NCBI GenBank assembly: GCA_000004695.1
Contig: CM000151.3
Location: 5,920,001 to 5,984,000, forward strand
Direction: 5' to 3'
From: Dictyostelium discoideum
Lineage: Eukaryota
Length of the DNA stretch: 64,000 bases
Position 1 is the stretch's first letter. The number at the start of each line of letters is the position of its first letter. The notes beneath the pieces are model-generated. The model was not told where the DNA came from, made no database searches, and saw nothing but the letters and a program-made list of their open reading frames with translations. Position numbers and translations under genes: made by a program. This document shows, piece after piece, positions 14,140 to 27,266 of this stretch.

Positions 14140-14171
14140 TGTGATTTTACAGGGCGTGTCCAAAAAATTAT

Positions 14172-14244
14172 CGCCTAGACATGGGATCGAACCATGGACC
14201 TAGCGGTTAACAGCCGCTCGCTCTGCCTACTGAGCCATCCAGGC
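14172..14244 (-). tRNA. tRNA-Asn (anticodon GUU)
   Basis: The minus strand reads GCCTGGATGGCTCAGTAGGCAGAGCGAGCGGCTGTTAACCGCTAGGTCCATGGTTCGATCCCATGTCTAGGCG. It folds as a cloverleaf with the anticodon loop CUGUUAA (GTT), a T-loop GGTTCGATCC, an acceptor stem GCCTGGA/TCTAGGC, and a T-run after the 3' end. Confidence 0.9.
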
Positions 14245-14524
14245 ATTTTTGATGAAATTTCAATTTAAATAAAAGGTCAGGTTTTTAAATTTTATCCGAA
14301 AAATGCTTTTTTTTAAATTTACAACTTTCCACCAGGAGTATTGATTTTAATCAATAATCCACTTGATTTTTAATATTTAATATGGTAATTTTAAAAACTT
14401 GACCAAAAATAAAAGTAATTATAATTAATATCTATTTTAAACTGTTACAAGATTTTTTTTTCAGAAAATTCGTTCGTTTTTTTTTTTTTTTCAGTTTAAT
14501 TTTAGATTTTTACGCACAAATAAA

Positions 14525-25369: not shown

Positions 25370-26897
25370 CAAAAAAAATAAATAAATAGGAAATAAATTG
25401 AATTACAAATAAAAATAATAATAAATGGAAAAATAAAACAAAAAAAAAAAAATAAAAAAATAAACAAAAAAAAATAAAATAATAAATAAACAATAAAAAT
25501 TATTTTAAATAAATTATTATAATTATTATTATTATTAATAAATTTTATTTATTAAATTCGTATAATTATATTTACTCATAAACAAATTGGGAAAAGGTAT
25601 ACTTTTATTATTGGTATTTTTAATTTCTTTTTTATATTATTATGTACGATGTTCAATTTGAAAGGAAAAAAGATAAAAAAAAAAACAAAAAAAGGTAATC
25701 TAGTTTGATTTTAGAAAAAAAAAAAAAAAAACTACCGTTATTCTTTTATATAGATAAGTTATTTATAAATTTGTTTATTTTTATCGTTTTTCTTATTATT
25801 ATTATTAGATATTGTAAACTAAAAAACTAAAGGAAAAAAAAAAAAAAAAAATTAAAAATAAAATAATGGAAAAAAAAAAAAAGGGGGAAAAAAAAAAATC
25901 TATTAAAGAAATTCCTTTATTAATATCTACCACACACCCCCCTATCTTATTTTTTTTTTCTTTTACTTTCCATATTTAAACCAAAACTAAAATTTGTGTA
26001 CGTGAATGTGTGGTTGCGTGTGTTTTGTTGAATGTGAAAGTATTTTTGTTTTAAATGTGACAAAAACAATAATATCAATAATGATAACTAAAAATAGAAA
26101 TTTGATAATAGCAATAAATGGGGATTACAATAATATTGATCATTTTACATATTCATTTTTTTATTATATATTATTATTATTATATATTAATTATATTATT
26201 TTATTATTATTATTATTATTATTATTTTAATTATTATTATTATTTATTATTAACCAGTAATAACAAATTAACTTACAGAGAGATGTTGATATTTTTGTGT
26301 GGTGACTTTTTGGTAAAAAAAACAAAAAATATTTCGAGATAAAAATAAGTTTATCAAAATGAAAAAAAAAAAAAAAGAAAAAAAAAGAAAAAAAAAGAAA
26401 AAAAAAAAAAATTGATTTTGGGATATTAATAAAAATTTCTTTGAAAAGCTTCCTCATTTTTAAAAACTCTCTTGATATTAAAAAAATAACTTATAAATTA
26501 ATTAAAATTTATTTTTATAATAGTCTAAATTATTTTTTTTTCATTTTGTTGCGGGGATAGAAAAAATCTAGTTTGCAATTTTTTTTTTTTTAAAAAATTT
26601 AAATCTTTTTTTTTTTTTTTTTTTTTTATTGATTATATTATTTTTTTAAAAAAAAAAATTGATTTATTTTTTTTTTATATAATATTTTTTTATTTTTTTT
26701 TTTTTTGTGAGTCTATTTTTTGAAAATTCCATTTTTTTTTTTTTTAATTAATCATACTTTTGATTTTCCAGTCATTTTCAATGATATGAGTAAAGCATAT
26801 CAAATAGGTTTTTGGACGACAAAAAAAAAAAAAAAAAATAAAATAAAAAATAAAAAAAAAATAAAGATTTTCTTATTAAATTATTAAAAACTAAGTA

Positions 26898-26905
26898 TCC
26901 CACAA
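26898..26905 (+). promoter_or_regulatory. DUSE (Dictyostelium upstream sequence element) box TCCCACAA upstream of the Class I RNA gene
   Basis: ATCCCACAAAATAAC matches the [A/T]CCCA[C/T]AA consensus found upstream of Dictyostelium ncRNA genes. The spacing to the RNA 5' end is about 88 nt, which is longer than the typical ~60 nt. Confidence 0.55.
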
Positions 26906-26991
26906 AATAACTTTTTATTAAAAATTTTGTAAATAATTTATTTTATAAATCTATGTTTTAATGTGTAAAACATTAAGTTAACACACAATTA

Positions 26992-27052
26992 AGTTGACCT
27001 TACAGCAAATCTTAAAGCTACTTCATTCTAAGAAAAACTCCTGTCAACTGTC
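26992..27052 (+). ncRNA. Class I ncRNA gene (Dictyostelium DdR-21 family)
   Basis: The sequence is AAGTTGACCTTACAGCAAATCTTAAAGCTACTTCATTCTAAGAAAAACTCCTGTCAACTGTC followed by T15. The 5' AGTTGAC and 3' GTCAACT form a terminal stem. The conserved 11-nt motif CCTTACAGCAA sits directly after the 5' stem arm, and the gene ends in a Pol-III-type T-run. Confidence 0.8.
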
Positions 27053-27158
27053 TTTTTTTTTTTTTTTTTTAATTTCTAATATCCCAAATAAATTGGCAAC
27101 CCACTGTAGGGTTCTGGATAGATTATAATTGAGAACCCTTTGCATTTTGGTATTAACA

Positions 27159-27168
27159 GAATCGAACC
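27159..27168 (-). promoter_or_regulatory. Ex-B box (GGTTCGATTC) about 28 nt downstream of tRNA-His
   Basis: The minus strand reads ...CGGCACTTTTTTGTCTTTAGGTCATATATACAGGTTCGATTCTG, i.e. a T6 terminator followed by an isolated B-box-like element. Confidence 0.6.
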
Positions 27169-27195
27169 TGTATATATGACCTAAAGACAAAAAAG

Positions 27196-27266
27196 TGCCG
27201 CGACCTGGAATCGAACCAGGGTCAACAGAGCCACAATCTGATGTACTACCACTATACTATCACGGC
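27196..27266 (-). tRNA. tRNA-His (anticodon GUG)
   Basis: The minus strand reads GCCGTGATAGTATAGTGGTAGTACATCAGATTGTGGCTCTGTTGACCCTGGTTCGATTCCAGGTCGCGGCA, with the anticodon loop TTGTGGC, and it is near-identical in layout to human tRNA-His-GTG. There is no encoded G-1, as expected in eukaryotes. Confidence 0.9.

Follow-up and report, generated by a model that had tools for sequence, protein, structure and literature searches.

The question raised by this 64,000-nucleotide (nt) stretch of Dictyostelium discoideum DNA (assembly GCA_000004695.1, contig CM000151.3, forward-strand positions 5,920,001 to 5,984,000; hereafter “the window”) is whether three short, similarly built loci in it are genes for Class I RNAs, and whether all three are active. 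The Class I RNA family is Rfam RF01414 and was described in Aspegren et al. 2004, Avesson et al. 2011, and Kjellin et al. 2021 (PMC7919456). An earlier note, made from the sequence alone, had assigned all three loci to this family and had suspected the copy near position 45860 of being inactive. That reading is supported in its essentials, only minor details being off, and the finding was already known. The window very probably contains two genuine, expressed, low-abundance Class I genes, DdR-41 and DdR-44, and a promoter-less, degenerate, silent copy, recorded as the candidate ddi_can_3, that lies 138 nt downstream of DdR-44. DdR-41 and DdR-44 are named, annotated, and expression-validated, and ddi_can_3 was scored and rejected in the same paper; nothing new is reported here on either gene.

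The survey of Kjellin et al. (Genome Res 2021; PMC7919456), with its supplementary FASTA file, tables, and Infernal outputs, was used as the reference for the family. The thresholds were the RF01414 gathering score (41.5) and, from the survey, a covariance-model (CM) score of at least 25 and a classifier score of at least 32 (PMC7919456). The classifier is the sum of the CM score and the FIMO score of the Dictyostelium upstream sequence element (DUSE), to which 5 is added if the distance of the element is in range (56–64 nt) and from which 5 is otherwise subtracted (PMC7919456). When this published formula was recomputed, values of 66.87 for DdR-41, 40.17 for DdR-44, and 18.52 for ddi_can_3 were obtained, equal to the totals as printed. 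A CM of our own, featuring a stem of 6 base pairs (bp), was constructed with the window's sequences left out of the training, and the whole window was scanned with the filters off. All counts of conservation (motif, 3' end, and folding) refer to 37 curated Class I members. The published RNA-seq data comprised six libraries (time points of 0, 4, and 8 h), from which only full-length 50-nt reads were mapped; a call of “expressed” is made only where the read coverage shows a distinct 5' end (PMC7919456).

Our CM returned exactly three matches in the window, at 66.3 bits (DdR-41), 42.8 bits (DdR-44), and 30.3 bits (the third copy). The fourth-ranked match, at 14.8 bits, was an AT-rich partial alignment, and because of this drop the window is taken to have three Class I-like loci and no further ones. 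RF01414 also matched all three (49.5, 34.7, and 21.6 bits, respectively). The comparison with the published Class I set and Rfam that the earlier note had proposed thus yielded two exact identities, with DdR-41 and DdR-44, and one recorded candidate, ddi_can_3. The loci were found where the note had placed them and with the layout it had described: AAG followed by TTG(A/G)C (in full, AAGTTG(A/G)CC), an 11-nt motif, a variable stretch, a (C/T)TGTCAAC segment complementary to the 5' end, and T runs downstream. The motif is exact (CCTTACAGCAA) at 26998–27008 (+) and 46084–46074 (−), and a variant of it (CCTTTCAGCAA), recognized as mismatched in the note, is located at 45902–45892 (−). With at most one mismatch allowed, the motif occurs three times in the 64 kb versus 0.45 times expected, and 0 of 100 shuffles reached three. 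The DUSE consensus [AT]CCCA[CT]AA alone was not enriched in the window (8 matches versus 10.1 expected); therefore, only the position of a DUSE relative to the RNAs is informative, and of the eight matches, two are properly spaced 5' of two of the three RNAs.

All three loci are intergenic and situated in AT-rich stretches, and no open reading frame (ORF) of at least 50 amino acids overlaps any of them. They measure 58, 44, and 45 nt, with GC fractions of 0.36, 0.45, and 0.40 (DdR-41, DdR-44, and the third copy, respectively); the family ranges from about 42 to 65 nt with roughly 32–41% GC, a value that DdR-44 slightly exceeds. It is in such details that the earlier description had to be amended. 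The variable region, put at 25–35 nt, has about 32–34 nt in DdR-41, as described, but only about 18–21 nt in DdR-44 and the third copy (the stretch specific to the latter being UACCUUUGAUCAAAAUACC). A uniform run of T5–T15 directly after each stem was not observed: the runs are T18 for DdR-41, T6 at a distance of 7 nt for DdR-44, and T5 and T9 beginning 14 and 22 nt past the third copy. Nor do the loci form one cluster of three; the arrangement is that of one singleton and one tandem pair, with DdR-41 19 kb away and the other two head-to-tail, 138 nt apart. The coordinates of all features are collected in Table 1.

Table 1. Positions of the Class I RNA loci in the window and of their associated elements.
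Feature	Position in window	Strand	Basis or remark
DdR-41 (r41, DDB_G0295513), Class I RNA	modelled 26993–27050; feature 26993–27051	+	identical to published sequence
DUSE of DdR-41, TCCCACAA	26898–26905	+	exact consensus match; Table S3 DUSE = 1
TGTG box of DdR-41, TAATGTG	26959–26965	+	seen in sequence; listed for r41 in Tables S2/S3
T18 run, probably a terminator for RNA polymerase III (Pol III)	27053–27070	+	sequence; Pol III as inferred by Kjellin et al. (PMC7919456)
DdR-44 (r44, DDB_G0295515), short Class I RNA	modelled 46089–46046; feature 46045–46089 with the U of CUGU at 46045	−	identical to published sequence
DUSE of DdR-44, TCCCACAA; non-canonical distance, without TGTG box	46156–46163	−	exact match
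T6 run, 7 nt past modelled DdR-44 end	46034–46039	−	seen in sequence
Third Class I-like copy, ddi_can_3; probably a pseudogene	45863–45907	−	CM match; Table S2
Flank block A 5' of third copy, TAAACTC then T19	45919–45944	−	homologous to 46221–46193
Flank block A 5' of DdR-44, TAAACT then long T run	46193–46221	−	flank homology
Flank block B directly before G of third copy, AATTACATAA	45908–45917	−	ATTACAT(C)AAGTTG match
Flank block B directly before G of DdR-44, AATTACATCAA	46090–46100	−	ATTACAT(C)AAGTTG match

For DdR-41, the evidence is uniform. An exact match of its sequence (GTTGACCTTACAGCAAATCTTAAAGCTACTTCATTCTAAGAAAAACTCCTGTCAACTG) to the published FASTA entry was confirmed by script at 26993–27050 (+), and the published coordinates (DDB0232429, chromosome 2, 5946991/3–5947050, +) equal the window position plus 5,920,000. 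In the mature RNA, the U of CUGU at 27051 is probably part of the 3' end. The RF01414 score of 49.5 bits lies above the gathering score, and the locus passes the membership threshold (published CM score 49.4, classifier 66.9; PMC7919456). AA precedes the first G and the 3' end reads CTGT, giving the AAG start and the CUGU end of the family. A 6-bp terminal stem is present in the minimum-free-energy (MFE) structure (P = 0.99), and the motif, an exact CCUUACAGCAA, is largely open, with a mean unpaired probability of 0.78 versus 0.56 for the whole RNA. Between 3,454 and 10,110 reads per library were published for DdR-41, which was called expressed with a “Read coverage” flag of 1 (PMC7919456).

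Two DUSE boxes had been placed at −65 and −88 in the earlier note, and both were recovered, at 66/67 and 87/86 nt, differences that fall within the counting convention. The more distant one belongs to DdR-41: the gap from the end of the DUSE to the first G is 87 nt by our count and 86 nt by that of Kjellin et al. (PMC7919456). The promoter account was incomplete in that the TGTG box of this gene had been overlooked. The far position of the DUSE is explained by this box, which lies 60 nt 3' of it; Tables S2/S3 list a DUSE distance of 86, a TGTG distance of 26, and a DUSE-to-TGTG distance of 60 (PMC7919456). DdR-41 therefore conforms to the rule that the DUSE is located 56–64 nt before either the RNA start or the TGTG box. 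A more distant DUSE, followed after about 60 nt by a TGTG box, is found in many Class I genes of D. discoideum; the box may be a promoter element or may mark where a precursor begins (PMC7919456). The same distal arrangement of DUSE and TGTG box is found in DdR-21, which shares with DdR-41 the stem GUUGAC/GUCAAC and the motif. The DUSE lies at a distance of 90 in DdR-21 and 86 in DdR-41, with DUSE-to-TGTG distances of 61 and 60, respectively.

A tRNA-His(GTG) gene (27195–27266, −) is convergent with DdR-41, with 142 nt between their 3' ends. A B-box-like sequence, GGTTCGATTCT, is found 27 nt 3' of the tRNA gene (27158–27168); it resembles the “external B box” of Dictyostelium tRNA genes. About 400 nt from the tRNA gene on its other side, the product of the ORF at 27660–28535 (+) belongs to the Thg1 family (PF04446, tRNA-His guanylyltransferases). 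That a tRNA-His gene adjoins a member of a tRNA-His-modifying enzyme family may be a coincidence.

The second gene, DdR-44, is less typical. Its sequence (GTTGGCCTTACAGCAAACCTTTGAAGATTACCCCTTGTCAACTG) was likewise confirmed by script as an exact match to the published FASTA entry at 46046–46089 (−), and the published coordinates (DDB0232429, chromosome 2, 5966044/6–5966089, −) are offset by the same 5,920,000. This one offset also places the third locus, so that the window corresponds to positions 5,920,001–5,984,000 on chromosome 2 of D. discoideum AX4. Our model gave it an E-value of 1.5e-9, and it passes the thresholds of Kjellin et al. with a CM score of 32.7 and a classifier score of 40.2 (PMC7919456). 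It was called expressed, with 1,617–3,610 reads per library and a “Read coverage” flag of 1 (PMC7919456). The gap between its DUSE and its first G is 66 nt (own count) or 67 nt (Kjellin et al.). Because this distance is outside the 56–64 range of the classifier, the DUSE is flagged as 0 for DdR-44 in Table S3. Since the gene is expressed and curated despite its off-distance DUSE, the distance rule should be regarded as a heuristic of the classifier rather than as an absolute criterion. The DUSE neighborhoods of DdR-41 and DdR-44 are alike over about 33 nt (TATCCCACAAA.T.A.TTTTTA..TTAAAAATT), a likeness whose score was reached by only 3 of 300 shuffles. DdR-44 is thus an atypical Class I member in its length (44 nt), its DUSE distance (67 nt versus 56–64 nt), its lack of a TGTG box, and its position under the Rfam gathering score. 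Its nearest relative in Dictyostelium firmibasis is DfiR-9 (79% identity). Both RNAs have the rare GTTGGC variant of the 5' stem and the 3' part ACCCC(C/T)TGTCAACTG; they differ in length (48 nt for DfiR-9) and in their variable regions.

It was also observed that the 44–46-nt DdR-44 has 1.6k–3.6k reads although the pipeline mapped full-length 50-nt reads only (PMC7919456). Either these reads come from longer precursors at the locus, or the filter was looser than described.

The third locus was traced in the Infernal outputs of Kjellin et al. as a match at chr2 5965907–5965863 (−), i.e., window positions 45907–45863, whose score of 30.8 with the first model dropped to 23.8 when the final high-sensitivity search was run (PMC7919456). 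Two unnamed candidates in Table S2 share the CM score of 23.8 (PMC7919456). The third copy is identified as ddi_can_3 because the best “DUSE” listed in that row (AAACATAA, distance 81) sits at 45995–45988, 81 nt from the G at 45907. The candidate has a classifier score of 18.5 (threshold 32), a FIMO DUSE score of −0.28, and 0 reads in six libraries (PMC7919456), in line with the suspicion that this copy is inactive. It is absent from the 40 earlier-annotated Class I genes and from the curated set (PMC7919456, supplement), and it falls short of both thresholds of the survey, its final CM score of 23.8 being below 25 and its classifier score being below 32. In agreement with the earlier note, which had reported a lack of a DUSE here, no box within three mismatches was found at a sensible distance; in the 150 nt upstream, there was no DUSE within two mismatches, and the best candidate had three.

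The RNA body of this copy is degenerate at positions that are nearly invariant elsewhere. In its motif, CCUUUCAGCAA, position 5 is U, whereas 36 of the 37 curated members have A. Its 3' end is CCGU; CCG occurs in none of the 37 members, of which 35 have CUG and two have UUG. The 6-bp stem remains perfect, and the AAG start and the core motif positions T3, C6, C9, A10, and A11 are retained. The body is 80% identical to DdR-42 (36/45 nt, ungapped), 77% to DdR-62, and 75% to DdR-44.

Such a weakened sequence could in principle be a chance resemblance in AT-rich intergenic DNA, without kinship to the Class I RNAs. The RF01414 search would fit this: the score was 21.6 bits, under the gathering score, with an E-value of 0.29 in a 1-kb search; no match to the copy appeared in the whole-window Rfam scan at E ≤ 1; and the final CM score of Kjellin et al. 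was under their threshold. Against it stand the ungapped 36-of-45-nt match to DdR-42 and the 30.3 bits (E = 4.6e-6) obtained from a model that excluded the third copy, with the next match in the window at 14.8 bits. In addition, the copy is on the same strand as a real Class I gene, 138 nt away from it, and its flank blocks (described below) are found nowhere else in the window. A chance origin is thus effectively refuted. The 30.3 bits show homology of the third copy to the family; they do not show its membership as a functional gene.

As a second alternative, the third copy could be a functional Class I gene that uses a promoter other than a DUSE or that is expressed under conditions, or in a size range, outside the published libraries. 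The preserved stem, AAG start, and five most conserved motif positions speak for it, as does the E-value of 4.6e-6. Moreover, the 0 reads were obtained at 0, 4, and 8 h and from the 50-nt-only mapping, which is unfavorable to an RNA of 45–47 nt. For candidates shorter than 50 nt, silence is therefore not as well established as the published table suggests. However, the equally short DdR-44 and DdR-42 were nonetheless detected, with hundreds to thousands of reads (PMC7919456). The copy also lacks a DUSE in its upstream 150 nt, and high-scoring candidates without a correctly placed DUSE are not expressed (PMC7919456). Its near-invariant positions are substituted, and a T19 run that stops 11 nt short of its first G would be expected to terminate Pol III read-through from DdR-44 and to insulate the copy from it. 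We thus consider a working third gene very improbable and prefer a silent, probably pseudogenic copy. It resembles r43, likewise short and silent and situated a few hundred nt from DdR-42, a short Class I gene that is expressed. In Table S2, ddi_can_3, r43, ddi_can_1, and ddi_can_2 are Class I-like candidates that lack a proper DUSE and are not expressed (PMC7919456).

As a side observation on the published table, the negative calls for the short members DdR-45, DdR-62, r43, and ddi_can_3 may be less secure than tabulated (PMC7919456).

Besides the read-length filter, several results weigh against the account of two genuine genes and one silent copy. The RF01414 score of DdR-44, 34.7 bits, is under the gathering score; its membership is accepted because it is identical to the curated DdR-44. 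Folding was also less favorable to DdR-44 and the third copy than to DdR-41. All six stem pairs are possible in DdR-44, with a G-U pair at position 5, but a rival hairpin that pairs positions 1–4 with 11–14 is preferred; the terminal stem has a P of 0.32 at 37° C but only 0.19 at 22° C, and the fold that contains it is 0.7–1.1 kcal/mol costlier than the MFE. The maximum-expected-accuracy prediction of Kjellin et al. for DdR-44 features the same alternative hairpin (PMC7919456). In the third copy, the 1–4/11–14 hairpin is preferred as well, and P for the terminal stem is 0.34–0.38. The earlier note had regarded the lack of a conserved terminal stem in the folded sequences as refuting, and by that measure only DdR-41 would stand. 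The measure itself was therefore examined on the family. The rival hairpin was also preferred in 8 of the 37 curated members (22° C), and single-sequence thermodynamic folding was rejected as proof of the stem: it works for DdR-41 and fails for DdR-44, the third copy, and 8–11 of the 37 curated members. Because it fails for genuine members, the absence of a terminal stem upon folding is an invalid test for refutation.

Family covariation is the better test of the stem. Among 31 distinct end-sequences of the family, 96.8% of the cells were paired versus 83.1% in shuffles, and double-sided changes numbered 18 versus 2.4, a count that 0 of 500 shuffles attained. The signal collapsed when the register was slid. 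In all three loci of the window, the six stem pairs are possible.

The low abundance of the two genes must also be counted among the adverse points. DdR-21 has 0.8–1.8 million reads per library (PMC7919456), making it about 150–300 times more abundant than DdR-41 and about 400–650 times more abundant than DdR-44; the latter two are minor members of the Class I pool. A northern blot is listed for neither, and the basis of their expression is the published RNA-seq. A further alternative is that DdR-41 and DdR-44, while transcribed, are functionally marginal paralogues without a developmental role, by-products of the quick birth and death of genes in this family. Read numbers 100–500 times below those of DdR-21, DdR-60, and DdR-31, the quick turnover of Class I genes, and, in DdR-44, the off-distance DUSE and weakly predicted stem are all compatible with it. 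On the other hand, the AAG start, the exact motif, the six stem pairs, and the CUGU end are intact in both genes; both were called expressed, which needs a distinct 5' end in the coverage; and DdR-44 has a plausible D. firmibasis counterpart in DfiR-9 (79% identical, and sharing the rare GTTGGC variant of the stem). We regard functional marginality as unlikely, though it deserves more weight than either alternative for the third copy.

The following course of expression would be consistent with these data. Transcription of DdR-41 and DdR-44 would depend on the DUSE, as the published RNA-seq suggests by correlation, and would probably be carried out by Pol III, which has been proposed from the T runs downstream (PMC7919456). 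In DdR-41, where about 60 nt separate the DUSE from the TGTG box and the mature 5' G follows 26–27 nt later, either a 5' leader would be removed or the box would act as a second promoter element. For DdR-44, the DUSE gap of 66–67 nt, without a TGTG box, would fit a short leader of about 7 nt that is transcribed ahead of the mature G and then removed. A leader of this size would explain how reads from a 44–46-nt RNA could appear in a 50-nt-only pipeline. The mature RNA would extend from the G to the CUGU, with its ends closed by the 6-bp stem, for which the family covariation argues, and with the motif CCUUACAGCAA largely unpaired. By analogy with DdR-21, the RNA may be part of a Class I ribonucleoprotein that contains Rnp1A and have a share in controlling early multicellular development. 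Disruption of DdR-21 increases the number of fruiting bodies and reduces their size, and DdR-21 binds Rnp1A directly; among the Class I RNAs, a knockout phenotype, in vitro structure probing, and Rnp1A binding are on record for DdR-21 only. Both protein sequestration and mRNA pairing have been considered as modes of action for the Class I RNAs.

There remained the question of how the third copy came to lie beside DdR-44. Two short blocks are shared by their 5' flanks. Block A has the pattern TAAACT(T/C) followed by a run of T19–24 in both; of about 203 T-runs of at least 10 nt in the window, only this pair is preceded by (T)AAACT. Block B, with the shared form AATTACAT(C)AA, directly precedes the first G, and ATTACAT(C)AAGTTG occurs in the window only at 46099 and 45916. 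The blocks are separated by 92 nt in DdR-44 (46192–46101, a segment that contains the DUSE) and by 1 nt in the third copy. Taken together, these flanks favor, by a modest measure, a scenario in which the third copy arose as a local duplicate of DdR-44, about 92 nt with the DUSE were deleted, transcription stopped, and the A5-to-U and CUG-to-CCG changes followed. Our confidence stays at this level because one of the blocks is of low complexity, no downstream homology was found, and exact-protein look-ups of the neighboring ORFs returned only transcript-like contigs of ~1 kb, which carry no flanking DNA. The downstream flanks of DdR-44 and the third copy scored below the shuffle mean, and the body of the copy is slightly nearer to DdR-42 (80%) than to DdR-44 (75%); descent from DdR-44 therefore rests on short flank blocks. 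As far as the Kjellin paper and its supplements show, the shared flank blocks and the missing 92-nt DUSE segment are first described here; in that survey, ddi_can_3 is an unnamed row whose origin is not discussed (PMC7919456).

If this origin is true, the pair of DdR-44 and ddi_can_3 would capture the birth-and-death evolution of the Class I family in a dated snapshot, and the third copy would represent a natural promoter knockout supporting the requirement of a DUSE for expression. The promoter-deleted look of the copy illustrates the quick turnover of the family and fits the published view that the DUSE is needed. The main value of the present analysis, however, is one of validation: a reader of the raw sequence recognized an organism-specific family of non-coding RNAs (ncRNAs), its promoter box, and a dead copy. 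It was also found that the Rfam gathering threshold misses a curated, expressed short member of the family, DdR-44.

The six other DUSE matches in the window were examined as well. One of them, at 59085–59078 (−), is followed exactly 60 nt downstream by GTTGAT...GGCAACTGT, but the candidate Class I-like gene behind it was rejected. There was no Rfam Class I match at E-values up to 10 (301-nt search), no match in the CM outputs of Kjellin et al. (PMC7919456), and none in the unfiltered scan with our own model; the fold was no better than those of shuffles (z = −0.46). The remaining five (39679, 45179, 47446, 51809, and 58461) were also set aside, their count being at chance level and no recognizable ncRNA being located downstream; the one at 47446 is within a 1138-amino-acid ORF (47005–50421) on the opposite strand.

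Some of these places have features of their own. At 58947–59115 (−), the segment GTTGATTTCACCCCCAAGC...GGGGGGCAACTGT, 60 nt past the DUSE-consensus ACCCATAA (59085–59078), bears a loose likeness to Class I ends. This DUSE is inside a direct repeat of about 29 nt, CACCCCCAAG(T/C)TATT(T/A)TTGTAATT, with copies starting near 59109 and 59007, and G5–6 runs complementary to C5 runs are found near the repeat. Two intergenic stretches 5.5 kb apart (~39645–39800 and ~45120–45290, both +) have about 150 nt in common at roughly 85–90% identity. Each features a DUSE-consensus box, and the shared order is a T-run, GATTTTGTAG, ..., TTTTTTTTTATT-TCCCATAA-AC, ..., TTAACCAAA.TATTAAAGG.TTGGTT, ..., TTTTTTTTGTGGAT. 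A 26-nt core of the pair occurs at only these two places in the window, versus 0 expected, and Rfam returned no match in either stretch. The pair could be a duplicated promoter or an unrecognized DUSE-driven transcript.

A second tRNA gene, for tRNA-Asn(GTT), was called by both ARAGORN and Rfam at 14171–14245 (−). Finally, the 1138-amino-acid ORF (47005–50421, −) contains a long (TTG)n/(CAA)n triplet repeat at 47500–47600 (+ as read); such triplet repeats are typical of Dictyostelium poly-Gln/Asn coding repeats.

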